Source: Flavobacterium sp. (GTDB taxonomy: Bacteria > Bacteroidota > Bacteroidia > Flavobacteriales > Flavobacteriaceae). Taken from it: a stretch of DNA of 64,000 nt. The notes under the pieces were generated by a model, which searched no databases, was not told the DNA's origin, and saw only the letters and a list, made by a program, of their open reading frames with translations. The translations under genes and the position numbers were made by a program. Below, one piece after another: positions 6,222 through 35,191 of this stretch. Positions within the stretch are counted from its first letter, which is position 1. Every line of letters starts with the position of its first letter. Location of the stretch: positions 31,123 through 95,122 of the forward strand of contig NZ_JAIXYH010000016.1 of assembly GCF_027490375.1 (NCBI RefSeq). Direction: 5' to 3'.

Positions 6222-7358
6222 TTAGTCAAAATAAATGATGTTCGCTGCTTTGTACGGATACTGATAAATGCAAAAACTCAGTTCGGCTTTTGGATAACGC
6301 ATTTTGAGCGAATCGGCTATTTGTCTATAAACACGAATCTCTGGATACACCACCGTATTGGTTTCGCGGATGTGCCACACGTTAGTTTGAAGAACCGTTT
6401 TCGTATCGCAGTACGTGCGCTTTTTCGTTTCAAAAACCTTCAGGTCGGGTGCTTCATCAGGTTTCCCCACACAAATATCAAATTGCTTTAACCTTCCAGA
6501 GTAGAGATTAAACGCTAAAAAGTTATCGTAATAATCAACGAAACTTAAAAAAGGGAGTATTAGTAAAAATAGGCCTAACAACAGTGTTTTCGGGTGTTTT
6601 ATATTGAAATGCAGTGCTGCTCGTTCTGTTTTATGATAAAATATGACAGGCAAAATAGCCATCATTAATATATTCCAAGGCCAAACAATACTGTTGTAAT
6701 CTATTCCGGAAGGTGAAATAAACACCAAAATGAAAATATGCATACCTACTAAAATCCACGCATAAAAGAATTTGTTTCGAGCAAATAAAACTCCGATAGC
6801 GCCAATTACTTCAAACACACCTAGAGCCAAACCGCTGTAATGCACTATGGCTTGTTCGGCTATCGATAAATCGAAACCTAAAAACCGCTGCAAAATCATT
6901 CGTTCCCAGACGTGAAATAAAAAGCCTCCGTTCAATTTATGCAAACCCGAGTGCAGATACAAACAAGCCGAGTAAAAAGCCATGTTCGCGGTAAAAAGCG
7001 CTGGTTTCTTTCTGTACAAATCAAATAATATTCCTGTAAATATAAATTGTAAAATATACGGCTGCCAGCGGTTTTGATCAGGAATTAATTGAATTATTTC
7101 TATGATTATCAAAGAAATAAGCACAATTCGATTTGTAGGCTTTAGCATTAAAAAAAGCAAACCCAACAACGAACCACCAAATAACACGTAGTGCAAAAAC
7201 GCTGGAAAGGCAGGTATAAAACTAAAGTACGGCGCCATTGGAAACACATGCGTTCCCAACCACAGCGGATAACTCATTACCTTGGTTACCAGCCAAAAAA
7301 ATAGCGTTAACCGAAAGATTAACTCTACTACTTTATCTTGATTCCGAAAAAATGACAT
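6222..7358 (-). CDS. Polytopic membrane protein of unknown function
   Basis: 378 aa with about 9 or more hydrophobic segments. I did not recognise a catalytic motif. Confidence 0.6.
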   Translation of the reverse strand: MSFFRNQDKVVELIFRLTLFFWLVTKVMSYPLWLGTHVFPMAPYFSFIPAFPAFLHYVLFGGSLLGLLFLMLKPTNRIVLISLIIIEIIQLIPDQNRWQPYILQFIFTGILFDLYRKKPALFTANMAFYSACLYLHSGLHKLNGGFLFHVWERMILQRFLGFDLSIAEQAIVHYSGLALGVFEVIGAIGVLFARNKFFYAWILVGMHIFILVFISPSGIDYNSIVWPWNILMMAILPVIFYHKTERAALHFNIKHPKTLLLGLFLLILPFLSFVDYYDNFLAFNLYSGRLKQFDICVGKPDEAPDLKVFETKKRTYCDTKTVLQTNVWHIRETNTVVYPEIRVYRQIADSLKMRYPKAELSFCIYQYPYKAANIIYFD

Positions 7359-19942: not shown

Positions 19943-20371
19943 ATGAAGCAGAGCAATCATCATTTTAGTTTTACAATATCTGTAAACACTACAAAAGCCA
20001 ATGTTTGGCAGACACTTATTGATGTTCAAAATTGGCATCAATGGGACACAGAACTCCTTGAAGCAAACCTTGAAGGCATTTTTGAAAAAGGTGCAAAAGG
20101 GACAATGAAACCCAAAACGGGACCAAAATTGAAATTTTACATTTCAGAACTTATCCCTAATCACTCATACACCATCAATACAATTATGCCAGTTGGCGAA
20201 CTTGTAATTAAGCGTAGTTTGACAGAAACAAACAACGAAGTTCATTTTACGGACGATATTGCATTTACAGGGTTTCTGAAATATATTTTTGGGTTAATGC
20301 TTGGCGGACAATTCAGAAAGGTTTTGCCTGAAGTAATGAATAACTTCAAACGAATAGCAGAAAATAAATGA
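19943..20371 (+). CDS. SRPBCC-superfamily (polyketide-cyclase/AHSA1-like) protein
   Basis: 142 aa. 'VWQTLIDVQNWHQWDTEL' is typical of SRPBCC ligand-binding proteins. Confidence 0.65.
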   Translation: MKQSNHHFSFTISVNTTKANVWQTLIDVQNWHQWDTELLEANLEGIFEKGAKGTMKPKTGPKLKFYISELIPNHSYTINTIMPVGELVIKRSLTETNNEVHFTDDIAFTGFLKYIFGLMLGGQFRKVLPEVMNNFKRIAENK

Positions 20372-20826
20372 AAACAGTAATTTTCGTATGCTTGTTTTCC
20401 TTTTTTTCAAAGTTGCAAGCACAAACAACTGAACCTAAATTGCCAATTGGAAATATCAGATTAAGTTTTTTGATTTTTCCACCGTTTACCCCACTGCTAA
20501 CTTTGGAAATGCGGACTTTGGACAAATTAACCATTCAGTTGGAAACAAATTTTATAAATACTCACGGTATAAATTTGAAGTATTTTATAAACGAGAGAAT
20601 GAACGGACATTTTGTATTTGTAGGCACAGCATTTTTAGAAAGTGATTTTTTGCGAAAAGATAAAAGCATAACCTTTCTGCCATATGCGGGTTATGGTTAT
20701 GCCTACCGATTTGGGAAATCAAATGCTTGGACTTTTGACAGCCGTTTAGGCATTGGCAGAACAACAAATGCGGACAATAACTTAATTCTTCCTGTTTTAA
20801 AAACAGGCATTGGACGAACCTTTTAA
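20368..20826 (+). CDS. Secreted hypothetical protein (possible small beta-barrel)
   Basis: It has a signal peptide (MKTVIFVCLFSFFSKLQAQ). Its ATG overlaps the upstream stop codon in an ATGA overlap. Confidence 0.5.
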   Translation: MKTVIFVCLFSFFSKLQAQTTEPKLPIGNIRLSFLIFPPFTPLLTLEMRTLDKLTIQLETNFINTHGINLKYFINERMNGHFVFVGTAFLESDFLRKDKSITFLPYAGYGYAYRFGKSNAWTFDSRLGIGRTTNADNNLILPVLKTGIGRTF

Positions 20827-20836
20827 AATAAAAAAA

Positions 20837-21208
20837 ATGATAGCACTAAAAATAGTTTACATAGCAAACATAATAGTAGCAGGTTGGATAAGCATAACTT
20901 CTGTTTTCAACCCAAACAAATCTGCCTTGACAGTTTTCCAAAACGCCTACCAACCGACAGAAGTTATACGGCTTGTTGGTTGTTTGTGGTTAGCAATAGC
21001 AATTTTATCAATTTTAGGACTATGGCGACCAATTTCATTTTCACCAATACTTTTAGTGCAACTTATATACAAAGGAACTTGGCTTTTAGTAGTCGCTTTA
21101 CCAGCAATCAGAAATAATCAACCTTATCCGACAGGTATGGCATTATTTTTTTTAATTTGGGTTTTGGTTTTACCATTTATTATTCCTTGGACAGAATGGA
21201 CGAAGTAG
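20837..21208 (+). CDS. Small membrane protein
   Basis: It has four hydrophobic segments. The start was trimmed to MIALKIVYIANI..., after the upstream stop codon. Confidence 0.5.
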   Translation: MIALKIVYIANIIVAGWISITSVFNPNKSALTVFQNAYQPTEVIRLVGCLWLAIAILSILGLWRPISFSPILLVQLIYKGTWLLVVALPAIRNNQPYPTGMALFFLIWVLVLPFIIPWTEWTK

Positions 21209-21636: not shown

Positions 21637-22482
21637 ATGACTACTAAAAAATCGATTCAAATATTTGAAGACAAACAGGTACGAACCGTGTGGGATGTCG
21701 ATCATGAAAAATGGTTTTTTTCTGTAATTGATGTGATCGAAATATTGGCTGGCACCGACCGACCGAGAAAATATTGGAGCGACTTAAAGGCTAAACTTAA
21801 GAAGGAAGGAAGTGAACTGTCCGAAAAAATCGGACAGTTGAAAATGCAGGCAGATGACGGAAAAATGCGTCTGACTGATGTAGCAGATACGGAACAGCTT
21901 TTCAGATTAATTCAGTCTATTCCGTCTCACAAAGCCGAGCCTTTTAAGCTGTGGCTTGCGCAAGTAGGCAGCGAACGCTTAGATGAAATGCAAGATCCTG
22001 AATTGAGTATTGATCGTGCTTTGGAACAATATTTAAAGTTAGGCTATTCGGAAAACTGGATAAACCAGCGCCTAAAAAGCATTGAAATTCGCAAAGAACT
22101 AACTGATGAATGGAAAAACAAAGGACTAAAAGAAGGGCAACAATTTGCCACGCTTACCGATATAATCACTAAAGCTTGGGCGGGTAAAACCACCAAACAA
22201 TACAAGGTTTTCAAAGGATTGAAAAAAGAAAACTTACGTGATAACATGACTAATACTGAATTGATTTTAAACATGCTTGCTGAGGCTTCTACCAAGGATA
22301 TTTCGCAAGCCACAAATCCGAAAGATTTCGATGAAAGCAAAAAAGTTGCCCAACAAGGCGGCAATGTAGCTAAAGTGGCTCTCAAAGAATTGGAATCAAA
22401 AACAGGAAAAAAAGTAGTTAGTTCGCTAAATGCTAAGTCGGTTTTAGGTATTGAAAAATCTCCAAAGAAAATGGATGAATAA
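21637..22482 (+). CDS. BRO-N domain / DinD-like (DNA-damage-inducible protein D family) protein
   Basis: The N-terminal 'IQIFEDKQVRTVWDVDHEKWFFSVIDVIEILAG' is a Bro-N pattern. The C-terminal 'KGLKKENLRDNMTNTELILNMLAEAST' resembles E. coli DinD 'KGLKKNQKILDHMGSTELAANLF'. Confidence 0.75.
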   Translation: MTTKKSIQIFEDKQVRTVWDVDHEKWFFSVIDVIEILAGTDRPRKYWSDLKAKLKKEGSELSEKIGQLKMQADDGKMRLTDVADTEQLFRLIQSIPSHKAEPFKLWLAQVGSERLDEMQDPELSIDRALEQYLKLGYSENWINQRLKSIEIRKELTDEWKNKGLKEGQQFATLTDIITKAWAGKTTKQYKVFKGLKKENLRDNMTNTELILNMLAEASTKDISQATNPKDFDESKKVAQQGGNVAKVALKELESKTGKKVVSSLNAKSVLGIEKSPKKMDE

Positions 22483-22993: not shown

Positions 22994-23310
22994 ATTTTTA
23001 TATACTACAACAGGCACTACACAACCCTTGCTTTCACATTACTTTCACTCAAAAACTCCCAAATGCAACCTAAGCCAATGCCTTTTATTCCCAGCTTTAC
23101 TTCTGAAAGAAATTCACGGTAAATTATTGTAAAGGCGTAAGAATTTATTCGTATTTTTATTTTTGTCTTTGTAGAAGTTTCAGTTCAAGTGTTTAAAAAC
23201 GAAGTTGATCGAAATTCTGGAAAGCATTAGAAGTAAAAGAAACAATAAAAAGACGGTTACGAGGTATATAAACGTACTTCCAACTACAAAAACGAGCTGA
23301 CGTATCAAAC

Positions 23311-26300
23311 TTGATTAGAGAAGAACTACATACCAACCACTCCATTGCATTTATCGACACCGAAATTGACCCCCAAAGCAAGCGCATTCGTGATATTGGC
23401 GGTGTTAAAAATAATGGCAGCTTGTTTCACGACCCTTCGGTTACTGCATTTATAGCATTTGTGAGCGGTACGCATTTTGTTTGTGGTCATAATATTATTA
23501 ATCACGACTTACAATATATCGGAAAAGCGCTGGCAGCGGCAGGAGTAAATTCAGCTAACATCATCGACACGTTGCATCTTTCACCTTTGCTATTTCCAAG
23601 CAAGCCATATCATGCATTGGTCAAAGACGATAAATTATACTATGAAGATGAAAACAATCCGTTAAACGATTCCATAAAAGCAAAAGATTTACTGAATGAC
23701 GAGATTACGGCATTCAAACAGCTTAACGAGAGCTTAAAACAAATATTCTACTTATTACTAAACGACAACCGAGAATTTCACGCCTTTTTTCGATTCATCG
23801 ATTACAAAAGTTCTGAGAACGACTTAACTCATATAGTTCGCACACATTTTAATAATGAAATTTGCGAAAAAGCCGATGTGTCGAAACTAAGCTTTGAAAA
23901 TCCAATTGAACTCGCTTATGCCCTATCGCTTATTCATTCGTTCGTGGTCAGAAAAAAGGCGTACTCCATTACGCCGCGTTGGGTTTTAAAAAATTATCCC
24001 GAAGTAGAACGAATCATGTTTCTTTTACGAAACAAACCTTGCCTTAGTGGCTGCGCTTATTGCAACGACTTTTTAGATGCACACAAAGGATTGAAGCGCT
24101 TTTTTGGTTACAGCTCTTTTCGAAACTACGACGGAGAACCTTTACAAGAAAGGGCAGTTAACGCAGCTATCAACAACAAATCGATACTTGCCGTTTTTCC
24201 AACCGGCGGCGGAAAATCAATCACATTTCAGGTTCCTGCTTTGATTAGCGGCGAAACCTCGAAAGCATTGACTGTAGTTATCTCGCCGTTGCAGTCGCTT
24301 ATGAAAGACCAAGTCGATAATTTGGAAAGAAACGGAATTACGGATGCCGTAACCATAAATGGCTTGCTCGACCCCATTGAAAGAGTAAAATCTTTTGAAA
24401 GAGTTGAAGACGGCTCAGCTTCTATTCTCTACATATCACCCGAATCGCTGCGATCCAAAACGATTGAAAGATTAATTCTAGGAAGAAAAATTGCTCGTTT
24501 CGTAATCGACGAAGCTCACTGTTTTTCGGCTTGGGGGCAAGATTTTCGAGTCGACTATTTGTACATTGGCGACTTCATAAAAGCAGTTCAAGAAAAGAAA
24601 AATCTAGATGAAGGAATTCCGGTTTCATGCTTTACGGCAACTGCAAAACAAAAAGTAATTGAAGATATTCGGTCGTATTTTAAAGAAAAGCTATCGCTCG
24701 AACTAGAATTATTCACTTCAAAAGCAGCTCGTACAAATCTGAAATACAAAGTTTTCAATAGAGTTGACGAAGAAGAAAAATATCAAACCGTTCGCGATTT
24801 ACTTGACGAAAAGAATTGTCCGACAATTATTTACGTTTCTCGGACGCGAAAAGCCTACGCGCTAGCCGAGCAGTTAACTCAAGACGGATTTCGTGCAAAA
24901 CCGTACCACGGAAAAATGGATAAGATTGAAAAATCTAAAAATCAGGATTCGTTTATCAATGGTACTACTCAGATAATCGTTGCTACTTCGGCTTTTGGAA
25001 TGGGCGTTGATAAAAAAGACGTTGGCATGGTTATCCACTTTGAGATTTCTGATTCGCTTGAAAACTACATTCAGGAAGCCGGACGAGCCGGACGAGATGA
25101 AAATCTGGCCGCAGATTGTTTTGTTTTATTTAATGAAGAAGATCTCAGCAAACACTTCATATTACTGAATCAAACTAAGCTTTCAATAAAAGAAATTCAG
25201 CAAATTTGGAAAGCTATAAAAGATATAACCCGTTTTCGTTCAACAGTTTCAAATTCGGCTTTGGAAATAGCACGAAAAGCAGGTTGGGATGAAAATGTAG
25301 TTGAAATTGAAACACGCGTAACTACTGCCATTGCAGCGCTAGAAGACGCTGGATACCTAACGCGAGGCCAAAATATGCCTCGTATTTTTGCGAACAGTAT
25401 TATTTCAAAGAATGCCGAAGAAGCCATTGCGAAAATTAATGCATCTGATAAATTTCAAGAACATCAAAAAGAAAAAGGAATTCGAATTATCAAAAAACTT
25501 TTTTCCAGTAAACGCAGAAAGGAAACAAACGATGAAGCTGCCGAATCGAGAGTTGACTACATCAGCGACCATCTGGGCATCGTAAAAGACGAGGTTATTA
25601 CCATCATCAATCTTTTGCGTGAAGAAAATATTTTAGCGGATGCCAAAGATCTGACTGCATTTATCAAAAAAGGGGAAAATAGAAATCGTTCGTTGAAAAT
25701 TGTCGATACATTTCGAAAAATAGAGAACTTTTTATTGCCCTATTTTGAAGAAGAAGAAAAAGTAATTCATATAAAAGAACTCAATGAACATGCCGCTGCA
25801 GCAGGAATTGATGAGGTAAACACGAACAGAATAAAGACAATCTTCAATTTCTGGGCTATTAAGAATTGGATTAAACGAAAATCGTTAGATTCTAAAAACC
25901 ACATCGCTATTCGTTCTTTGCATACCCAGGAAGTCTTAAAAGAAAAGCTGGAGAAGCGCCATGATTTAGCAAATGCTATTATTCAGTTTTTATATGAAAA
26001 AAGCAATCAAAGTGAATTAAATACTGATTCAGAAAAAGAGGAAGTTTTGGTTGAGTTCTCTGTACACGAGCTAAAAGCCGACTATGAAAACAGGAGCAAT
26101 CTTTTTAATTTGAATATTAGCATTGACGATATTGAAGATGCGCTCTTTTATTTGTCGCGTATTGAAGCTATTAAAATTGAAGGCGGTTTTCTTGTATTGT
26201 ATAACCGATTAACCATTGAAAGAACAGAAACCGACAATAGGAAAAAATACACCAAAGACGATTATCAGAAATTGCAACAGTTTTATGAAAGTAAAGTACA

Positions 26301-28152
26301 GCAAATTCATATCGTGGGCGAATATGCTAAAATGATGATTTCCGACTATAAAAACGCTTTGCAATTCGTAGAAGACTATTTCCAATTGAATTACAATTCG
26401 TTTTTGAGTAAATACTTTAAGGGTAGCCGACAAAACGAAATCAAACGAAATATCACACCGCAAAAGTTTCAGCAATTGTTTGGTGAACTTTCGCCAACAC
26501 AACTAAAAATCATCAACGACAAAGAAAGTCAACATCTTGTTGTTGCCGCCGGACCTGGAAGCGGAAAAACACGCGTTTTAGTGCACAAACTTGCGTCGTT
26601 ACTACTTATGGAAGATGTAAAGACAGAGCAATTATTGATGCTTACATTTTCTAGAGCAGCAGCAACTGAATTTAAAAAGAGATTGCTGCAATTAATTGGA
26701 AATGTTGCCCATTATATTGAGATCAAGACCTTTCACTCTTATTGTTTTGATTTGCTGGGGAAGGTTGGAAGTTTGGAAAAATCAGATGAAATTCTGCAAA
26801 AGACCATCGAAAAAATTAGAAGTAAGGATGTCGAACAAAGCAGAATCACGAAAACTGTTTTGGTAATTGACGAGGCGCAAGATATGAACTACGACGAATT
26901 TGCGCTTGTTAAGTCATTGATAGAACAAAATGAAGATATGCGCGTCATTGCAGTTGGAGACGACGACCAAAATATTTATGAATTTCGAGGAGCGAGTTCA
27001 AAATATTTGGAGAATTTTATTCGTGAACATCATGCTATAAAATACGAATTACTTGAAAACTACAGAAGCAAAAATAATCTTGTAGCTTTTTCAAATCAAT
27101 ATGTAAATCGGATTCCAAATCGCCTGAAGCAACTGCCCATAGTTGCTATGCAAAAAGACAACGGAACATTAAAAATAGTTCGTTATCAAAATAAAAACCT
27201 CATCGACCCCCTCGTTCAAGACATCCTAACAACAGGACTTTCAGGCACTACGTGTGTTTTGACAAAAACAAACGACGAAGCACTACAAATTACAGGCTTG
27301 TTGTTAAAAAACAAAGTGCATGCGAAGTTAATTCAATCCAATGACGGATTTAATTTACAAAATCTGTTTGAAATGCGTTTCTTTATGAATCATATAAATG
27401 CGTCTGATGAAGTTCCAACCATTAGCGATGAAGTATGGAAAAATGCCCAACATGCACTAATTAACAGATTTCGAAACAGTTCTAACTTAGAAATTTGCTT
27501 AAACATCTTCAAAGATTTTGCAACCGTCAATCCCAAAAGGAAATATAAATCGGATTTAGATGCGTTTATCCGGGAATCAAAACTAGAAGACTTTTTCAGT
27601 GAAAAAAGTGAAACTATTTTTGTTTCAACCATTCACAAGGCAAAAGGTAAAGAATTTGATAACGTTTTTATACTGCTTGATGACTTTAACCTCACAATAA
27701 ACGAAGAAAAACGACAATTATATGTTGCACTAACAAGAGCAAAAAACAATCTGACAATTCATGTGAACTCCAACATTTTAGATCAGTTGAAAGCAGATCA
27801 CGTAAATTGGATTGACGACAGAGATTTTCATCCTCAGCCGAAAGGCCTAGTAATGCAATTAACTTTAAAAGACGTATGGCTAAACTATTTCATAGACAAA
27901 CAAAGCGTTATATCCCAACTTACTAGCGGTGACACTTTAATTGTGAATGAAAACGGATGTTTTGATAGCAACGGCAAGCCCATTTTAAAGTTCTCTAAAC
28001 ATTTTGTCGAACAAATTGAAACCAGAAAAACGAATCATTACGAACTAAAATATGCAACAGTAAACTATATTCTCTTCTGGAAGAATGAAAACATGCATCA
28101 CGAAGTAAAAATTGTGTTGCCAGGTCTGTACTTCGAAAGATCAAATAAGTAA
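23311..28152 (+). CDS. 1,613-aa fusion protein: DEDD 3'-5' exonuclease + RecQ-family SF2 helicase + UvrD/PcrA-like SF1 helicase + unassigned C-terminal domain
   Basis: - Exonuclease motifs: IAFIDTEID, FVCGHNIINHDLQYI.
- RecQ motifs: FGYSSFRNYDGEPLQERAV, FPTGGGKSITFQ, FVIDEAHCFSAWGQDFRVDY, FTATA, ATSAFGMGVDKKDVGMVIHF, YIQEAGRAGRDE.
- UvrD motifs: VVAAGPGSGKTRVLVHK, LTFSRAAATEF, VLVIDEAQDMN, GDDDQNIYEFRGAS, ENYRS, STIHKAKGKEFDNVFIL, LYVALTRAKNNLTI.
- Start: TTG, because no in-frame ATG exists upstream of ExoI. Confidence 0.9.
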   Translation: MIREELHTNHSIAFIDTEIDPQSKRIRDIGGVKNNGSLFHDPSVTAFIAFVSGTHFVCGHNIINHDLQYIGKALAAAGVNSANIIDTLHLSPLLFPSKPYHALVKDDKLYYEDENNPLNDSIKAKDLLNDEITAFKQLNESLKQIFYLLLNDNREFHAFFRFIDYKSSENDLTHIVRTHFNNEICEKADVSKLSFENPIELAYALSLIHSFVVRKKAYSITPRWVLKNYPEVERIMFLLRNKPCLSGCAYCNDFLDAHKGLKRFFGYSSFRNYDGEPLQERAVNAAINNKSILAVFPTGGGKSITFQVPALISGETSKALTVVISPLQSLMKDQVDNLERNGITDAVTINGLLDPIERVKSFERVEDGSASILYISPESLRSKTIERLILGRKIARFVIDEAHCFSAWGQDFRVDYLYIGDFIKAVQEKKNLDEGIPVSCFTATAKQKVIEDIRSYFKEKLSLELELFTSKAARTNLKYKVFNRVDEEEKYQTVRDLLDEKNCPTIIYVSRTRKAYALAEQLTQDGFRAKPYHGKMDKIEKSKNQDSFINGTTQIIVATSAFGMGVDKKDVGMVIHFEISDSLENYIQEAGRAGRDENLAADCFVLFNEEDLSKHFILLNQTKLSIKEIQQIWKAIKDITRFRSTVSNSALEIARKAGWDENVVEIETRVTTAIAALEDAGYLTRGQNMPRIFANSIISKNAEEAIAKINASDKFQEHQKEKGIRIIKKLFSSKRRKETNDEAAESRVDYISDHLGIVKDEVITIINLLREENILADAKDLTAFIKKGENRNRSLKIVDTFRKIENFLLPYFEEEEKVIHIKELNEHAAAAGIDEVNTNRIKTIFNFWAIKNWIKRKSLDSKNHIAIRSLHTQEVLKEKLEKRHDLANAIIQFLYEKSNQSELNTDSEKEEVLVEFSVHELKADYENRSNLFNLNISIDDIEDALFYLSRIEAIKIEGGFLVLYNRLTIERTETDNRKKYTKDDYQKLQQFYESKVQQIHIVGEYAKMMISDYKNALQFVEDYFQLNYNSFLSKYFKGSRQNEIKRNITPQKFQQLFGELSPTQLKIINDKESQHLVVAAGPGSGKTRVLVHKLASLLLMEDVKTEQLLMLTFSRAAATEFKKRLLQLIGNVAHYIEIKTFHSYCFDLLGKVGSLEKSDEILQKTIEKIRSKDVEQSRITKTVLVIDEAQDMNYDEFALVKSLIEQNEDMRVIAVGDDDQNIYEFRGASSKYLENFIREHHAIKYELLENYRSKNNLVAFSNQYVNRIPNRLKQLPIVAMQKDNGTLKIVRYQNKNLIDPLVQDILTTGLSGTTCVLTKTNDEALQITGLLLKNKVHAKLIQSNDGFNLQNLFEMRFFMNHINASDEVPTISDEVWKNAQHALINRFRNSSNLEICLNIFKDFATVNPKRKYKSDLDAFIRESKLEDFFSEKSETIFVSTIHKAKGKEFDNVFILLDDFNLTINEEKRQLYVALTRAKNNLTIHVNSNILDQLKADHVNWIDDRDFHPQPKGLVMQLTLKDVWLNYFIDKQSVISQLTSGDTLIVNENGCFDSNGKPILKFSKHFVEQIETRKTNHYELKYATVNYILFWKNENMHHEVKIVLPGLYFERSNK

Positions 28153-28500: not shown

Positions 28501-29181
28501 CTATAACCTCATTTTCAAAGGCACAAGGCGGTTCATACTACGGGGTGTGTACTCGCCGGCTTTTTTGTACTGAATCGAATCGCGTGAACGAACTTCAATG
28601 ATCTGGTACCTTTCAATATCATCTTTCCATTGATCATCAGTAATGAAATGTTTGATATCTATGGTTCCGAGGTTGATGGCGTTGTCGTACGAAAGAGCAT
28701 TAAGAGCATCAATTTGACTTTGCTTTTCCACGTCGTCGGGCAACAAAGCTGTTTTAGTTTGATCCAAATTTGAATACGGATGGTCTAGTCCGTTTAAAAA
28801 CTCATGGAAAACAAAAGACTCCGACTTTTCAAAATAAATAGGCACGACGGCATAAAACGGATATTGTAAACGAGAACCCTCAAACTCTAGTCGCAAATAA
28901 ATTTCTGGCGGAAAATCATTACTTGGATAACCGCAACTGATGCAATTGTATCGTATCAAAAGTTCGTATTCCTTTGTTTTTGCATTGTACTTTAAATCGT
29001 AATTCCTCAGATAGTTAAAAGTTTTGGAATCGTTGAGAAACACTTCAACATTTTTGTAGGTATATCTGAGCGTTTCCTTCGTATTTAATTTGAACTTAAA
29101 CTTAAAATGCCACAACTCACCATCTTGCGCAACCATAAGATTTGAAATAAACAGAATTAATAGGAGCAGTACTTTTTTCAT
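28501..29181 (-). CDS. Secreted hypothetical protein
   Basis: It has a signal peptide (MKKVLLLLILFISNLMVAQ). It is 226 aa and I recognised no motif. Confidence 0.6.
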   Translation of the reverse strand: MKKVLLLLILFISNLMVAQDGELWHFKFKFKLNTKETLRYTYKNVEVFLNDSKTFNYLRNYDLKYNAKTKEYELLIRYNCISCGYPSNDFPPEIYLRLEFEGSRLQYPFYAVVPIYFEKSESFVFHEFLNGLDHPYSNLDQTKTALLPDDVEKQSQIDALNALSYDNAINLGTIDIKHFITDDQWKDDIERYQIIEVRSRDSIQYKKAGEYTPRSMNRLVPLKMRL

Positions 29182-29287
29182 ATCACCTAACTTTAATTGT
29201 GTTTTAAATCCGATTTTCTTGATAATCTGTTTTTATTGTTTAAGTCTTAAAATAACGAAATCGCAAAAAACGGCTGTCGGTCGCAAC

Positions 29288-30172
29288 TTATATTTTTGCA
29301 ACGATGGTTTTTAAATCGTTGTCCGTTAAGTTCTCTTTCATGCGGTTTCGCTTTGACAATTTCCGATAAATGGCGTTGTATTTTTTAAGCTCTGGACTCT
29401 CATATTTTTTAAGATATCTAATCAACAAAACTACATGGGAGTATCCCAATTGTTTCACTCCTTTGAGGTTCGTGTTTTTGTCTTGATGCTTCTCAAAGTA
29501 ATACTCAAAATTTTCTTTGGAAAGCTGTTTAAGGTAAGTAATTAGCTCTTCTCGCTTGTCAAATTTATCAAACAGCTTAACTTTTGCATAGGAAGAATTT
29601 GCGTACGAATAATACCGTGATCCGAGTCTTTTTTGCTCTTCAACGAGCTTTATGTTTATGGTTTGTAGCGCCTGAGTGAAATCGTTCCCAATCACATAAA
29701 TGTTGAAAAGCATATCTAGTGCTAAAAACGTAAAGTGCTGGCTTTCCCACGCGGCTTGGGAGATGTTACTAGCCAATAGTTGTTTATAATCGGCTATAGC
29801 TGCCGTAAACTGTCTGGTTTTCATAAAATAGAGTCCGCGCTGATGGTAGAAATTTCGTTCATTTACAATATTGAAATCGCCCGTTTGAATATAATTTCGG
29901 TAGATTCTCTCAAATTCTTTTTCATAGGTTTTAATACCCAGCTTTTCCGGATTGGTTTCGGCGTTGAGGTATTGGGAAAATGGCTGGTAAACCCAATCGC
30001 CGTCGAGCAGTGTAACTTGCATGGTGAGCCGTTCCCATCGCAGCGGATCGTTCAAAGAGTCTTTTTCCAAGATTCGTGTAATATCTGCAATTCTTTGCGG
30101 ATAACCTGTCGTTGGATTAGGTTGTGCTGCAAGAATGCTGGATAACAATAACAATACGTATAAATACTTCAC
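29288..30172 (-). CDS. Secreted helical (TPR-like) hypothetical protein
   Basis: It has a signal peptide (MKYLYVLLLLSSILAAQ). It is 294 aa with helical-repeat-like composition. Confidence 0.6.
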   Translation of the reverse strand: MKYLYVLLLLSSILAAQPNPTTGYPQRIADITRILEKDSLNDPLRWERLTMQVTLLDGDWVYQPFSQYLNAETNPEKLGIKTYEKEFERIYRNYIQTGDFNIVNERNFYHQRGLYFMKTRQFTAAIADYKQLLASNISQAAWESQHFTFLALDMLFNIYVIGNDFTQALQTINIKLVEEQKRLGSRYYSYANSSYAKVKLFDKFDKREELITYLKQLSKENFEYYFEKHQDKNTNLKGVKQLGYSHVVLLIRYLKKYESPELKKYNAIYRKLSKRNRMKENLTDNDLKTIVAKI

Positions 30173-30367
30173 AAGTTCGGATTTTAAAGGACAGAAAGTG
30201 CATAGGTACTGAAAAGTGTAACGATTTCCGAAACTGTTTATTTTACGAAGACTTCATTTCGCGACTTTAGAAAAGTTTGAAATTGTGAAAAAACACAACT
30301 AGTACCTATTAACTGAACGTGAGCTTAGAATAGTTTTATGCAAAGAAGGCAAAGCGGTTGTTTATAA

Positions 30368-30900
30368 TTTAAAGTATTAAGATTGGAGTATTAAGACTTT
30401 GCGGCGTTCACCACCTAAAGTTTCGTTTTTTGAGAAGCCAGTCCCGATGACTATCGGAATCGTAACGTTCACCACTTAACGTGTCATTTCCCCAACTTAA
30501 CCCACGTTTCGTCGGAGCCTGAGCTTGTCGAAGGCTGGTGCCTGAGCTTGTCGAAGGCTAATCTTTTAATCTTGTAACTTTTTACTACATCAGTCAGGCT
30601 GACCACATAGGCACAGAGTTCACAAAGTTTTTACACGATGTCAAAAAAGCACTGTTTTTCTCTAATTACATGCATTTCAATTTTTTCGCTTTTTTAAATC
30701 TTTTCAATTTTTACTAAATTACTGCGGTTGACCACATAGGCACAGAGTTCACAAAGTTTTACACGATGTCAAAAAAACACTGTTTTTGTCTATTTACTTT
30801 AATTTCAATTTTTTCGCTTTTTTAGCTTTTTTAGCTTTTTTAGCTTTTTCAAATCTTTCAATCTCGAAATCTCGAAATCTTTAATTCTGGAAATCTTTAA
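30368..30900 (+). repeat. Mosaic repeat locus L2 (same module order as L1, preceding core copy B)
   Basis: The modules appear in this order:
- AAGTATTAAGATTGGAGTATTAAGAC
- CGTTCACCAC modules
- the hairpin CAGTCCCGATGACTATCGGAAT
- CCTGAGCTTGTCGAAGGC, twice (30528-30557)
- AATCTTTTAATCTTGTAA
- a 2 x ~129-bp tandem duplication
- TTTTTAGC and AATCTCGAAATCT microsatellites. Confidence 0.8.
30581..30838 (+). repeat. Tandem duplication, 2 x ~129 bp
   Basis: GACCACATAGGCACAGAGTTCACAAAGTTTT(T)ACACGATGTCAAAAAA.CACTGTTTTT...ATTTCAATTTTTTCGCTTTTTT occurs at 30601 and again at 30730 (period 129). The CACAAAGTTT module also occurs inverted at 18305-18355. Confidence 0.85.
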
Positions 30901-31058
30901 TTAGCTCTTCCCGTTTTCCGCTGTAGTCCTCGTAAAAAACGGCGCGTTCACACGTCTTGCAGCAGGCTTCTGAGGTCGCCCGCGCAACCCGGTTCACGTA
31001 GCCGTCTTTTACTGTGGGCTGCCGCTGCAACCGGGGCTAAGGCAAATCGTTAGTAACG
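30901..31058 (+). ncRNA. Core copy B of the structured repeat element
   Basis: The outer stem is AAAAAACGGC (30934-30943) / GCCGTCTTTT (31001-31010). The central hairpin is TTGC(A)GCAGGC (30957-30967) / GCCCGCGCAA (30978-30987) with loop TTCTGAGGTC. The 3' end reads ATCGTTAGTAACG. Confidence 0.55.
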
Positions 31059-31180
31059 ATCGGTCACCACAAAATATCCCAATCTTTAGATTAATTTGAA
31101 ACACGCACCAACTTTCCACTCCAATTAAAAAAAATTGAAAAAATACTTTGCCCGGATAAGTTGCGTAAATGTACGGCTTC

Positions 31181-31335
31181 ACGTTAATACGTATTTCGGG
31201 TAAGCGATAGCAGCGTTATCCTTTTTGGCCTTACGAAATTTCCACTTTTGTGTTGCCAAAAAGATACAGCGGATAGCGCGACGGCGGCTACACGAAACGT
31301 TTGCGAAGCTGTACAATTGCGCCGCCGGTACCCCC
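31181..31335 (-). repeat. Diverged core copy F (inverted orientation)
   Basis: The reverse complement ends ...GCTGCTATCGCTTACCCGAAATACGTATTAACGT, which matches the 3' module. It contains CGGCGGC...GCCGCCG (as in copy G) and the hairpin CTTTTTGGC/GCCAAAAAG. Confidence 0.45.
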
Positions 31336-31665
31336 AAAAAATAAAGAAAAAATATTTGTTGTCTGGCGATAAACTCATACTTCAAAAAATCGGTTTGCTT
31401 TGAATTGCCGGCATTAAAAAGATCTTTCCATGCCGTGCGCTATCGAGAATTATCCAAATTGATTACGGCAGAGTTTTTGCTTAGTTTTGGAACTAAAATA
31501 CTGGTCGGAATAAACAATAAAGGAATTACAGCAGCACTAAATTCTAGCTTTAAGATTAGGGCACAGCAAATTTTATAGCTTAAAATCAGCTGATGTTGCT
31601 TTGAAATTTGGCTGATGCGAAAACCAAACCTACACGATAATTTGCAAAACTAGAGAAGGGGAACC

Positions 31666-32301
31666 ATGAAAAATTACAGGTACGTTTTAATCTTATTTTT
31701 AAGCCTCTCCAATTTGGCTGTGTCGCAAATAAGTCTGGGACAAGACAGGAGATACGTTTACAATAACACGAAAGACACCATTTTCTTTACTAATTTCTTA
31801 CCTAAATTTTCAACAATCGGATTTAATCCAAAGATTTCTTTATGCGGCGACATAAAAATTGTTGATTCTATTCAAGTCGATGGAATAGGAAGAAAGGAAC
31901 TTGTTTTTTATTTTAACTGCACATTTTTTAACTCGCAACACGGAGGAACGTTCGACATTGATGAAAGTGTCGAAATCGGAAAATACGAGATTTGGAATCT
32001 GGACACAAAGTCGGTAATCTTTGAAGTGATCGATCATAAAAAAACTAATTTTAATAGATTTATCGCGGGACAGCCTAAAGCAAACGGAAATACCTGCTAT
32101 AAATCGGATGTGACTTTCGATGATTCTGGAACGATTACGGTCAAGAATGTAAAAACCGATTGTTCTGTGGAAAATGAAAAAAAAGTAAAATCAAGAGGTA
32201 AGCGAAAAAAAGACACGTGTACAACAACCGATGCACGAGGTAAAAAGCAAGAAGTCGTCTATAAATTTATAGACGGAAAGTACGCAGAGCTTCGCAATTA
32301 A
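31666..32301 (+). CDS. Secreted hypothetical protein with Lys-rich C-terminus
   Basis: It has a signal peptide (MKNYRYVLILFLSLSNLAVSQ) and is 211 aa. Confidence 0.6.
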   Translation: MKNYRYVLILFLSLSNLAVSQISLGQDRRYVYNNTKDTIFFTNFLPKFSTIGFNPKISLCGDIKIVDSIQVDGIGRKELVFYFNCTFFNSQHGGTFDIDESVEIGKYEIWNLDTKSVIFEVIDHKKTNFNRFIAGQPKANGNTCYKSDVTFDDSGTITVKNVKTDCSVENEKKVKSRGKRKKDTCTTTDARGKKQEVVYKFIDGKYAELRN

Positions 32302-32354
32302 CTGCAAAACAAATCATAACAAGTACCCAGATCCGAAATTCAAACTCCAACGAT

Positions 32355-32843
32355 ATGGCACAACACATTTGCTACCTGATCACTACAGAAGATTTCGACG
32401 CAGCAATACCCATCGATATTGTTCATTTTCACGAAAAAAATGCTACCATTATTCCGCTTTTAATGGAAGTTTACGAATTTGAGACTATGGTTTCTTGCGC
32501 TTCGGAAGCGAATAATGTAGCCGACTTTCACCAAAGCACCTCTGCATTTACTTTTGAGTATCCAACAAGAAAAGCACTTGAATTTGTTGCAAAAGCCGAT
32601 TTGAAAACCTTCGGTATTGTTTATTTTTCGGACGATTTCATGGTTCCAGAAGATTCAAGCCCCATTTTTTTTATCGAAAACATTAGAAGAAACTTAGCTT
32701 GGAATGATTATATAAGTGCCATTCACGACCAATTAAACAGCGCTTTTAAATCTTATGAATTACTGAAAAACGAGGACAAATACTGGGATTTTTACAATGC
32801 CGAGGAGCAATATTTTAGACTTCTAGAAAAGAACCTCCGTTAG
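32355..32843 (+). CDS. Cytoplasmic hypothetical protein (162 aa)
   Basis: Clean ORF lying 54 nt downstream of the previous gene. I recognised no motif. Confidence 0.5.
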   Translation: MAQHICYLITTEDFDAAIPIDIVHFHEKNATIIPLLMEVYEFETMVSCASEANNVADFHQSTSAFTFEYPTRKALEFVAKADLKTFGIVYFSDDFMVPEDSSPIFFIENIRRNLAWNDYISAIHDQLNSAFKSYELLKNEDKYWDFYNAEEQYFRLLEKNLR

Positions 32844-33074
32844 CGGCAATTGTAGGAAAGCATTACTTAAGGTTTCAATTTGCAGATTGTATCCATTCAT
32901 GCGCTTTGTGATTGATCAACACTAAATCTCTTTTAAATCTGCAGCTCTTATCTGGCAGTTAATTAATAGCGCAATTGTATGGGAAACTGTGTGGTTGTGT
33001 GTGGCAAAGTTGGAAGATTTTTTTGTGGAGAAGCTAGAAGAGTTAACCAGTTTACGTATCTCTTTAGTATTAAG

Positions 33075-33435
33075 ATTTAAGTATTGCGATACTGATGATT
33101 TCGCCACTAATCGTATCTTTTATCCTACCGATCCCACATTTTGTTAGAGCCTAAACTTATCGAAGGCAGCCTATCGAATGTTGGAACAACTTTTGGGCGG
33201 CTGCTCTGTGGTTTCCGCCACAGCGCTAAATTGCGAAAAAATCTGCGAAGTTCGATGGTCTCCGTGCACTTAAAAAATCGAATACCTGAGTTTATCTGGG
33301 CGTTCCCTGCCAACGTCTGTGCTGCATCTAAAAGTCGACTCGGCAGGTCAGGCTGTTCGCTAATATCTGCCACTCGGCAACGGCCGCTCGTGGCAGGATT
33401 TTCGCTGCCATCCTTAACGCAGAAAAACGTCTATG
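33075..33435 (+). repeat. Mosaic/core copy E (diverged, longer)
   Basis: TAGTATTAAGATTTAAGTATTG matches the heptamer-module relative. GAGCCTAAACTTATCGAAGGC matches CCTGAGCTTGTCGAAGGC. CGCTAAATTGCGAAAAAATCTGCG matches the core 5' part. GGATTTTCGCTGCCATCCTTAACGCAGAAAAACGTCTATG matches the 3' module. Confidence 0.45.
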
Positions 33436-33499
33436 AAAAATCGTATCAAAAAGAAACCGCTGCCTTTCGAGCAACGGTTTCTTCCAATTCTTTCATTAC

Positions 33500-35191
33500 T
33501 TAGCGAATGAGTTTTCGATATTTGATACGCTTCGGCGTCACGTCGGCACCTAAACGTTTGCGCTTGTTTTCTTCGTATTCCGTAAAGCCACCTTCGAAAA
33601 AGTACACTTCCGAGTTGCCTTCAAAAGCCAAAATATGCGTACAAATTCGGTCTAAAAACCAACGATCGTGACTGATAACCACAGCACAACCCGCAAAGTT
33701 TTCCAAACCTTCCTCTAACGCACGTAAGGTATTTACATCCAAATCGTTCGTAGGCTCATCTAAAAGCAAAACATTGCCTTCTTCCTTTAATGTCATGGCC
33801 AAGTGCAAACGGTTGCGTTCACCGCCCGAAAGCATCGATACCTTTTTGTTTTGTTCGCTGCCACCAAAGTTAAAACGACTCAAATACGCACGTGCATTTA
33901 CTTGTCGGCCGCCCATCATAATCAATTCTTGACCACCGCTAAAGTTTTCGTAAATCGATTTATCGACATCAATATTTGAATGCGACTGATCCACGTAAGC
34001 AATCTTTACCGTTTCGCCAATCGAAAAGCTACCACCATCGGGTGTTTCTTCTCCCATAATCATGCGGAAAATTGTCGACTTACCGGCACCATTCGGACCA
34101 ATAACACCAACAATTCCCGCTTGAGGCAAGGTAAAGTTCAAATTATCGTACAACAATTTGTCGCCAAAAGCTTTCGCAACGTTCTTAGCTTCAATTACGT
34201 TAGTTCCCAATCGCGGACCGTTCGGAATGTAAATTTCCAGCTTCTCGTCCAGTTGCTTCTGATCTTCATTCAACAACTTATCGTAATTCTGTAAACGTGC
34301 TTTCTGCTTGGTCTGACGTCCTTTCGCGCCCTGTCTCACCCACTCCAACTCGCGCTCTAGTGTTTTTCTGCGTTTACTCGCTGTTTTTTCTTCCTGTGCC
34401 AAACGAATCGTTTTTTGATCGAGCCAAGACGAGTAGTTTCCTTTCCACGGAATTCCTTCTCCACGGTCGAGTTCCAAAATCCAACCAGCAACGTTATCCA
34501 AAAAGTAACGGTCGTGCGTAACGGCAATAACTGTTCCGGCGTACTGTGCCAAATGCTGCTCTAACCACAACACCGATTCGGCATCGAGGTGGTTGGTAGG
34601 CTCATCCAGTAACAAAACGTCGGGTTGTTGCAACAGCAAACGGCAAAGTGCCACACGACGGCGTTCGCCACCCGAAAGATGCTTTATCGGCGTATCGGCA
34701 TCAGGCGTGCGCAACGCATCCATGGCAATCTCTAGTTTGGTGTCAATTTCCCAAGCGTTTAAGGCATCAATTTTATCTTGTAGTGCCGCCTGTCTGTCCA
34801 TTAATTGCTGCATTTTGGTTTCATTTTCATAAACCTCAGGCAGCATAAAACTGTCGTTAATTTCGTTGTATTCCGCAAGTACAGCCATGGTTTCGGCTAC
34901 TCCTTCGCGAACAATATCAATAACGGTTTTATCCTCATCAAGTTGCGGCTCTTGTTCCAAATAACCCACAGTATATCCGGGTGCAAAAACTACATCGCCC
35001 TGATAATTTTTATCTACTCCTGCGATGATACGCAGCAAAGACGATTTACCAGAACCGTTTAAACCGAGAATACCAATTTTAGCTCCGTAGAAAAAGCTGA
35101 GATAGATGTTTTTTAAAACTTGTTTGTCGCTGCTGCTGTAGGTCTTCGAGACCTTTTGCATGGAAAAAATAACCTTCTTATCGTCTGACAT
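33500..35191 (-). CDS. ettA: Energy-dependent translational throttle ABC-F ATPase EttA
   Basis: It has two ABC cassettes (GLNGSGKSSLLR, GPNGAGKSTIFR; LSGGERRRVAL, LSGGERNRLHL). Its 563-aa length and the sequence 'KVIFSMQKVSKTY' are typical of EttA. Confidence 0.93.
   Translation of the reverse strand: MSDDKKVIFSMQKVSKTYSSSDKQVLKNIYLSFFYGAKIGILGLNGSGKSSLLRIIAGVDKNYQGDVVFAPGYTVGYLEQEPQLDEDKTVIDIVREGVAETMAVLAEYNEINDSFMLPEVYENETKMQQLMDRQAALQDKIDALNAWEIDTKLEIAMDALRTPDADTPIKHLSGGERRRVALCRLLLQQPDVLLLDEPTNHLDAESVLWLEQHLAQYAGTVIAVTHDRYFLDNVAGWILELDRGEGIPWKGNYSSWLDQKTIRLAQEEKTASKRRKTLERELEWVRQGAKGRQTKQKARLQNYDKLLNEDQKQLDEKLEIYIPNGPRLGTNVIEAKNVAKAFGDKLLYDNLNFTLPQAGIVGVIGPNGAGKSTIFRMIMGEETPDGGSFSIGETVKIAYVDQSHSNIDVDKSIYENFSGGQELIMMGGRQVNARAYLSRFNFGGSEQNKKVSMLSGGERNRLHLAMTLKEEGNVLLLDEPTNDLDVNTLRALEEGLENFAGCAVVISHDRWFLDRICTHILAFEGNSEVYFFEGGFTEYEENKRKRLGADVTPKRIKYRKLIR

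Follow-up and report, generated by a model that had tools for sequence, protein, structure and literature searches.

How a bacterial cell might use a single polypeptide that joins an exonuclease to two different helicase motors is the question raised by a gene of Flavobacterium sp. The gene lies at 23311-28152 in a 64,000-nucleotide stretch of contig NZ_JAIXYH010000016.1 (positions 31,123 to 95,122 of the forward strand, assembly GCF_027490375.1), hereafter the window, and its product is referred to as the fusion protein. A first-pass annotation of this DNA had proposed a novel single-gene defence or repair machine. Our computational analysis showed that the gene belongs to a deep, widespread family of fixed multi-domain architecture, which is accessory, standalone and horizontally mobile. 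Its most likely role, which we put forward tentatively, is single-gene helicase-nuclease defence against mobile DNA. The modules, the mobility and the presence of defence neighbours are in line with the proposal, but most neighbours are housekeeping genes and a repair function fits the domains equally. The uncharacterised fusion family is real and has a wide distribution, yet it does not so far amount to evidence for a new mechanism of immunity.

Open reading frame (ORF) analysis of 23311-28152 (+) found a single intact ORF that begins with TTG and runs for 1,613 codons and a stop. The upstream in-frame stop is at 23269-23271, and between it and the first exonuclease motif (ExoI) there is neither an in-frame ATG nor a GTG. 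The NCBI protein P0001, 'RecQ family ATP-dependent DNA helicase [Flavobacterium sp.]', is identical to the fusion protein along its 1,613 amino acids (aa), and NCBI had thus picked the same TTG start independently. The uninterrupted frame and the sole TTG start that had been read from the DNA were both borne out, as was the presence of three enzymatic modules on one chain, with Pfam and NCBIfam models identifying the motors and a family profile plus a structural model identifying the exonuclease. The gene and its parts are as follows.

23311..28152, forward strand: exonuclease-RecQ-UvrD fusion helicase, complete gene, identical to P0001.
23311..23730, forward strand: DnaQ-like DEDD 3'-5' exonuclease domain, aa 1-140 (profile against the PDB, AlphaFold2 (AF2) model, invariant carboxylates).
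23731..24090, forward strand: helical domain with a four-Cys cluster, aa 141-260 (conserved Cys; helical in AF2, predicted local distance difference test (pLDDT) >90).
24091..25140, forward strand: RecQ-family superfamily 2 (SF2) helicase core, aa 261-610 (PF00270, PF00271, TIGR00614).
25141..26460, forward strand: family-specific inter-motor region, aa 611-1050 (conservation; weak winged helix-turn-helix (wHTH) and helix-turn-helix (HTH) matches).
26461..27780, forward strand: UvrD/PcrA-like superfamily 1A (SF1A) helicase core, aa 1051-1490 (PF00580, PF13245, PF13361, PF13538).
27781..28149, forward strand: family-specific C-terminal alpha/beta domain, aa 1491-1613, possibly HIRAN-like (AF2, Foldseek).

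The N-terminus had been called a DnaQ/RNase T-like exonuclease. This call is supported by a family profile, an AF2 model and invariant carboxylates, but the expected match to Pfam RNase_T (PF00929) failed even at E<=10. A single-sequence phmmer search of the N-terminus against the PDB gave no match. A profile built from 37 diverse N-termini, down to 34% identity, matched small DEDDh exonucleases in the PDB (best 9l8b_A, E 2.5e-4), with ExoI, ExoII and ExoIII of the family in register with these enzymes. The motifs lie at D16/E18 (ExoI), H60-N61..D66 (ExoII) and N115-N116..D120 (ExoIII). In the same alignment D16, E18, N61, D66, D86, K105, P117 and D120 were invariant, H60 and H101 nearly so, and the four DEDD carboxylates (D16, E18, D66, D120) held down to 34% identity. 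The fifth catalytic residue, which is His in the H-x4-D of DEDDh enzymes or Tyr in the Y-x3-D of DEDDy enzymes, was absent from ExoIII and replaced by Asn; the suspicion of an atypical ExoIII was correct, Asn115 occupying the position of the DEDDh His. The AF2 model of aa 1-275 (pLDDT 91.4, predicted template modelling score 0.88) has the DnaQ order b1-b2-b3-aA-b4-aB-b5, with ExoI on b1, ExoII at the start of aB and ExoIII on a long helix, 117-137. The best Foldseek match was Staphylococcus aureus DinG (8zef, probability 1.00, E 2e-3), followed by exonuclease domains of B-family and T7 polymerases, oligoribonuclease/REXO2, RNase AS and Cas2-DEDDh. No match reached E<=0.001, though the list was coherent. 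Four acidic residues on an RNase-H-like fold, which define the DnaQ-like DEDD group, are present, with fold matches that are weak. We conclude that the N-terminus adopts a DnaQ fold whose metal-binding tetrad is complete and whose fifth residue is non-canonical; catalytic activity is likely, though not assured.

It is conceivable, if improbable, that the DEDD domain is instead a weakened sensor that binds 3' ends or nucleotides, and that the fusion protein is a dual-motor translocase or remodeller with cleavage supplied in trans, for example by an HNH protein. The Asn in place of a catalytic His or Tyr, the blindness of Pfam RNase_T to the domain and the 4-bp overlap of an HNH_2 gene with the helicase start, seen in six loci, would agree with such a role. 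The invariance of all four carboxylates to 34% identity, however, is hard to explain without catalysis, the conserved H60 and H101 could serve as general base, and >90% of loci, like all divergent clades, lack the HNH partner.

Between the exonuclease and the first motor, the reported Cys cluster was borne out by family alignments, in which C185, C248 and C251 never vary and C244 is >=90% conserved. C185/C244/C248/C251 form a putative zinc site just N-terminal of RecQ motif 0, whereas in canonical RecQ the zinc site follows the core. Pfam placed DEAD (PF00270) at aa 277-452 and Helicase_C (PF00271) at aa 489-595, and NCBIfam TIGR00614 (recQ_fam) scored 271.6 bits against a cut-off of 219.8, which places the motor in the RecQ family of SF2. 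Motif 0, Walker A GGGKS, DEAH, the aromatic loop WGxDFR, SCFTATA and QExGRAGR are invariant family-wide. The core had been described as complete; the DEAD, Helicase_C and TIGR00614 matches agree with this, but no RQC match was obtained. Neither a canonical RQC nor an HRDC domain was found with Pfam or NCBIfam, and the RecQ equivalog models failed (TIGR01389, 311 against a cut-off of 640; NF008279, 239 against 1015), their matches ending at profile position ~350-368. RecQ proper, that is, an orthologue of Escherichia coli RecQ, was rejected on these scores and on the missing RQC/HRDC.

The stretch between the motors had been taken for a helical linker of ~400 aa. It is not a spacer, since it contains the best-conserved stretch of the whole protein (aa 601-700, 0.90-0.94 among 80 close relatives), and it is still conserved in the deep family. 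The helical character held for the part that follows two wHTH/HTH-like segments, at ~650-690 and 748-790. These segments gave weak matches to HTH_36 (Pfam) and to the wHTH of PH1932 (profile against the PDB). Single-sequence Pfam and PDB searches of the region found no significant relative, and a profile of aa 600-800 against the PDB gave only noise or weak wHTH hints.

The second motor was confirmed as UvrD/PcrA-like SF1: PF00580 (from aa 1061, 115 bits), PF13245 (AAA_19, 81 bits) and PF13361 (aa 1369-1487, 77 bits) all scored above cut-off, consistent with SF1A, and PF13538 matched as well. The motifs AGPGSGKT, TFSRAA, DEAQD, VGDDDQ, NYRS, VSTIHKAKG and YVAxTRA are invariant family-wide. The Walker A Lys had been misplaced at 1079; the invariant Lys of GPGSGKT is residue 1086. 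Orthology to UvrD, PcrA, Rep or helicase IV was rejected (94-127 bits against cut-offs of 543-1168). With all orthologue models far below their cut-offs, neither motor is orthologous to a housekeeping enzyme.

The C-terminal ~130 aa, which had been left unassigned, are the least conserved region (27% mean identity in the deep family) and modelled well with AF2 (pLDDT 87, core >90). Foldseek listed the HIRAN domain of HLTF (4s0n, 4xzg, 5bnh; probability 0.8-0.9, template modelling (TM) score 0.42-0.47, weak E of 0.2-0.5) and lp_0118 (3k2y, E 0.14), which we presume may also be HIRAN-like. No Pfam family (PF08797 included) and no PDB sequence matched, with either single-sequence or profile searches; sequence searches found the domain in the fusion family only, and a BFVD fold search of the model was uninformative. 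The region is therefore modelled and weakly assigned at best: it is possibly a HIRAN-like fold that would bind 3'-OH ends, which we treat as a lead.

The architecture is not a rarity. An exhaustive search with aa 1-260 returned 1,133 clusters at 50% identity, 166 of them with E below 1e-30, and a clade-specific scan in which a single genome stood for each species gave relatives in at least 372 of 185,579 genomes. Complete members are nearly all 1,580-1,690 aa long. They occur in Bacteroidota, Campylobacterota, Cyanobacteria, Proteobacteria and Clostridia, where the relatives are fragments, and all are annotated 'RecQ family helicase'. Our close-relative set, the best 80 of the 372 (all ~1,600 aa, 69-77% identical), covers Flavobacteriales, Chitinophagales, Sphingobacteriales, Cytophagales and Bacteroidales. 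Among 46 full-length representatives at 25-60% identity, the Walker A, DExx and arginine-finger motifs of both motors were conserved together with the DEDD carboxylates. At the level of sequence, the catalytic motifs show purifying selection across the deep family.

The distribution of the gene was that of an accessory element. Mean identity within orders was 0.76-0.82 as compared to 0.767 between orders, and the nearest neighbour came from the same order for just 20 of 67 sequences. A 7.2-kb block of AbiEi, AbiEii and the helicase is 89% identical in nucleotides between a Weeksellaceae locus (L001 in our numbering) and a Chitinophagaceae locus (L005), with homology stopping at both edges. In L001 a 57-nt direct repeat (336-392 and 7203-7259; 88% identical) brackets exactly this block, and could be an insertion scar, an attachment (att)-like site or a small repeat element; in L005 apparently only the downstream copy is present, as inferred from the BLAST junction. 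Three Flavobacterium genomes carry the fusion gene in three unrelated loci: the clpB/ettA surroundings of the window, a locus with RND efflux, ThuA and IS200 genes in F. piscis, and one with Lon and GH31 in CYK-55. Fixed synteny was looked for and was absent, in agreement with the accessory, non-housekeeping placement claimed earlier. The AT-rich island context was likewise supported, by the lack of synteny and by the GC content, which is 36.6% in the 18.2-33.5 kb part of the window and 39.3% elsewhere in it (0.366 versus 0.393). In several loci the GC of the fusion gene is well below that of its flanks.

Distant full-length relatives (28-50% identity) reside on plasmids of Bacteroides/Phocaeicola, Aliarcobacter, Nostoc/Scytonema, Rhizobium, Sulfitobacter and Allochromatium; plasmid-borne copies span five phyla. 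In the Aliarcobacter plasmid pACIB the gene directly adjoins parA/parB and rep, and in a plasmid of B. finegoldii it is near genes for single-stranded DNA-binding protein (SSB) and ParA/ParG. HipA toxin-antitoxin genes adjoin the plasmid copies in Rhizobium and Aliarcobacter, a type I restriction-modification system adjoins the Allochromatium copy, and an N6-methyltransferase and a helicase adjoin the Nostoc copy. On Nostoc punctiforme pNPUN02 (L083, 8824-13842), three consecutive coding sequences are annotated 'RecQ family helicase', 'UvrD-helicase domain protein' and '3'-5' exonuclease'; this copy, which adjoins an ISNCY transposase, is apparently frameshifted or pseudogenised. Copies 71-72% identical to the fusion protein also turned up in genome bins of other phyla, namely L067 (Methylophilus rhizosphaerae), L054 (Fibrobacter), L053 (Bacillales), L040 (Bifidobacterium) and L064 (Thioalkalispiraceae). 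The flanks of L067 have 39% GC, well under what we take to be the GC content of Methylophilus, and this locus is probably a mis-binned Bacteroidota contig. In L054, L053 and L040 the gene is 9-15 GC points lower than its flanks, as could be expected after recent transfer.

These locations raise the possibility that the gene serves its carrier plasmid, integrative element or prophage, by acting on replication or transfer intermediates, by excluding competitors or as a counter-defence that removes R-loops or host nucleases. The full-length plasmid copies in five phyla, the proximity to parA/parB and rep in pACIB and to SSB and ParA/ParG in B. finegoldii are points in its favour, as is the BRO-N domain of a neighbouring protein, whose family is common in phages. 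A motif-based scan of IMG/VR added near-full-length relatives (40-57% identity) on 13 predicted viral or proviral contigs (L086-L098), although a scan of IMG/VR with clade-specific patterns found no relative. Against such a role, most copies lie on chromosomes and have neither integrase nor transposase nor conjugation genes among the two genes on either side (+-2 genes), no conserved element backbone surrounds the fusion gene, and no complete INPHARED phage carries the fusion, on which ground a phage gene was rejected. A benefit to the mobile element is, in our judgement, the least probable of the roles considered here.

RecQ and UvrD/PcrA/Rep motors translocate 3'->5' on single-stranded DNA (ssDNA), and DnaQ-type exonucleases digest from a free 3'-OH. 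With both motors running 3'->5' and an exonuclease that needs a 3'-OH, capture of a 3' end or junction, ATP-driven unwinding and 3'-5' degradation would be the most economical mechanism. We regard this biochemical picture, in which a captured 3' end is unwound by two motors and fed to the N-terminal exonuclease, as probable. A free 3' end or a junction of single- and double-stranded DNA would be captured, possibly by the HIRAN-like C-terminal domain. Candidate targets are the end of a linear phage genome, an intermediate of rolling-circle or recombination-dependent replication, and incoming conjugative ssDNA. The RecQ and UvrD motors would unwind or strip the DNA, the 3'-ended strand would pass to the exonuclease for processive degradation, and the host chromosome would be spared because it is without free 3' ends. 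Mobile DNA that invades or replicates characteristically exposes free 3' ends, in keeping with single-gene defence; such ends are also present at stalled forks and breaks, in keeping with repair of the WRN/HLTF kind. The most specific form of the proposal, a widespread single-gene immune family in which HIRAN-like reading of 3'-OH ends lets RecQ and UvrD motors feed foreign DNA to a DEDD-Asn exonuclease, is possible but doubtful.

Several observations weigh against defence as the role of the family. By a rough estimate from the lists of families, no more than a quarter to a third of the 80 loci covered by a PADLOC scan of +-2 genes had a strong match there. Control genes 6-10 kb off also matched defence models (type I methyltransferase, AbiE, Shosta, SspB, DndH, MADS), so that the regions are defence-rich and yield no clean enrichment factor; the family often, though not always, resides in such regions. 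The +-2 neighbours gave ~280 Pfam family entries on 219 proteins, mostly housekeeping. Conservation is high for a defence gene: 70-77% identity across orders is more typical of enzymes that act on invariant DNA structures and fits repair equally. Two motors of equal polarity cannot both drive one fork the same way, which makes the coupling model speculative. No Pfam family, RNase_T included, matched aa 1-260 even at E<=10, and in the ExoIII family consensus, N-N-P-x-x-D, Asn115 aligns with the catalytic His of DEDDh enzymes; with Asn in place of His/Tyr and no RNase_T match, exonuclease catalysis is not assured. The HIRAN assignment is based on E values of 0.2-0.5 and TM scores of ~0.45. The searched literature held no phenotype for any family member, and a WRN/HLTF-like accessory repair function fits the domains equally well.

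That repair function would be carried out by an accessory genome-maintenance enzyme, a WRN analogue with HLTF-like capture of 3' ends and UvrD-like protein stripping, acting as an optional repair module on stalled or reversed forks, gaps and double-strand-break ends of host or plasmid. Exonuclease and RecQ follow one another as they do in WRN, the exonuclease finds its best fold match in DinG, an exonuclease-helicase of replication stress, and the C-terminus weakly resembles HIRAN, a reader of 3' ends at forks. The very strong sequence conservation with all motifs invariant, the many loci with housekeeping neighbours only, and the plasmid copies beside replication, partition and SSB genes point the same way. 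We nevertheless consider genome maintenance unlikely. The family is patchy (at least 372 of 185,579 species genomes in the clade-specific scan), horizontal transfer between orders is frequent, synteny is missing even within Flavobacterium, and no SOS or repair-gene neighbourhood is conserved. Defence genes recur immediately beside the fusion gene, some of them translationally coupled, which is atypical of repair genes.

We next compared the fusion protein with known systems. Its parts are all of known kinds, and it resembles several helicase-nuclease processors of DNA ends in separate respects while qualifying as a member of none of them. The searched literature contained no description of a DEDD exonuclease, Cys4 module, RecQ core, middle region, UvrD core and HIRAN-like tail in one chain. 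The claim that no described system unites two helicase superfamilies and an exonuclease in one chain therefore stood in the searched literature and among PADLOC v2 models, none of which covers the fusion protein at full length. To our knowledge, no described defence or repair system has its architecture or the mechanism proposed here. WRN and the plant WRNexo/RecQ pairs resemble it in having an N-terminal DnaQ-fold 3'-5' exonuclease followed by a RecQ core with motif 0 and aromatic loop. The WRN exonuclease, however, is DEDDy, whereas the fusion protein has Asn at the fifth position. WRN also has a canonical RQC (zinc and winged helix) and an HRDC, neither of which was found in the fusion protein, and it lacks the second, SF1 motor and the possible HIRAN-like tail. 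The likeness is taken to be one of convergent architecture. DinG of Gram-positive bacteria (S. aureus, Bacillus subtilis), to which the best fold match (8zef) belongs, similarly has an N-terminal 3'-5' DEDD exonuclease fused to an SF2 helicase. Its single motor is an XPD-like 5'-3' helicase of Fe-S type encoded by a core gene, in contrast to the RecQ motor, two-motor design and patchy occurrence of the fusion protein. HLTF and Rad5 carry a HIRAN domain, which binds 3'-OH ends, on a DNA motor, and the C-terminal domain of the fusion protein is a possible, weakly matching counterpart (E 0.2-0.5). Their HIRAN is N-terminal and their motor is SNF2, whereas the fusion protein combines RecQ and UvrD with a C-terminal domain.

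RecBCD, AddAB and AdnAB likewise join two motors and a nuclease for processive processing of DNA ends, and weak NCBIfam matches place the UvrD-like SF1A motor of the fusion protein with the RecB/AddA type. Those enzymes are multi-subunit, with PD-(D/E)xK nucleases and motors that are both SF1 (of opposite polarity in RecBCD), whereas the fusion protein is one chain with a DEDD nuclease and SF2 and SF1A motors of the same nominal polarity. Hachiman (HamAB), Nhi, Gabija (GajAB) and Hna couple a helicase that senses or loads on aberrant or free DNA ends to a nuclease, a logic to which that of the fusion protein would be analogous, and the fusion gene lies in defence islands at a fraction of its loci. 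The fusion protein differs from them in that it has no GajA/OLD, HamA or phospholipase D (PLD) partner, a DEDD nuclease, and two motors in a single gene. Its UvrD part matched the GajB models of PADLOC (E 1e-44); Gabija was rejected, as the matches were at domain level only and no GajA-like neighbour was present in the window or recurred in the 80 loci. The RecQ core strongly matched DpdF of the Dpd 7-deazaguanine system (E 3e-95) and PsyrT/RqlH (PsyrT model, E 1e-79). Dpd and PsyrTA were also rejected, since these matches were limited to aa ~256-653 and neither a dpd cluster nor a PsyrA/RqlI antitoxin recurs nearby.

Should the fusion gene act in defence, the immune repertoire would gain a large single-gene family of helicase-nucleases that crosses phyla and is especially common in Bacteroidota, where defence is under-explored experimentally, and SF1 and SF2 motors would for the first time be seen to cooperate in one chain. 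As a repair enzyme, the fusion protein would bring the logic of WRN and HLTF (exonuclease, RecQ, 3'-end reader) to bacteria and offer a tractable model. Under either role, thousands of entries named "RecQ family ATP-dependent DNA helicase" are mis-described, and three concrete features lend themselves to tests: aa 601-700, the Cys4 module and the DEDD-Asn active site.

The genes around the fusion gene varied. Clustering of 1,182 flanking ORFs from 81 loci found no conserved flanking partner: the most frequent family occurs in 7 of 81 loci, none of the sporadic partners recurs beside divergent relatives, and a conserved operon partner was rejected accordingly. An HNH gene stands within +-2 genes in seven loci; in six of these its stop and the helicase start share 4 bp. 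This HNH_2 endonuclease gene (~320 aa, PADLOC HNH model PDLC04132) was seen in L010 (341-1303), L017 (9039-10001), L040, L049, L061 and L067. The overlap suggests translational coupling, and the pair may be a two-gene sub-type. Other +-2 neighbours were AbiEi/AbiEii, a Schlafen-group-3 helicase (PADLOC PDC-S41, 4 loci), PDC-S13, DUF2357 with PD-(D/E)xK, type I, II and IV restriction enzymes, SoFic, AbiD, PD-T4-1, PbeA and several more PDC candidates.

In the window itself, searches for flanking repeats, tRNA genes and att sites around the fusion gene and for HNH or AbiE remnants in intergenic regions found none, and a scan for sigma-70 promoters and terminators did no better than shuffled sequence. 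Six ORFs at 28501-33500 and 20368-21208 (226, 294, 211, 162, 152 and 132 aa), all within the low-GC DNA that separates clpB from the ABC-F (ettA-like) gene, had no Pfam or PADLOC match. A PADLOC check of the island, which the first-pass annotation had suggested, gave a full-length candidate upstream of the fusion gene but no full-length model for the fusion protein.

21637..22482, forward strand: BRO-N-domain gene (PF02498), upstream neighbour, full-length match to PADLOC PDC-S13 (PDLC04920), a candidate family of single-gene defence, E 1e-135, 1-274/286.

The N-terminus of the BRO-N protein also matched PDC-S04. Members of its protein cluster also adjoin the helicase in L010 and L017, and the BRO-N gene is an island co-resident rather than an obligatory partner.

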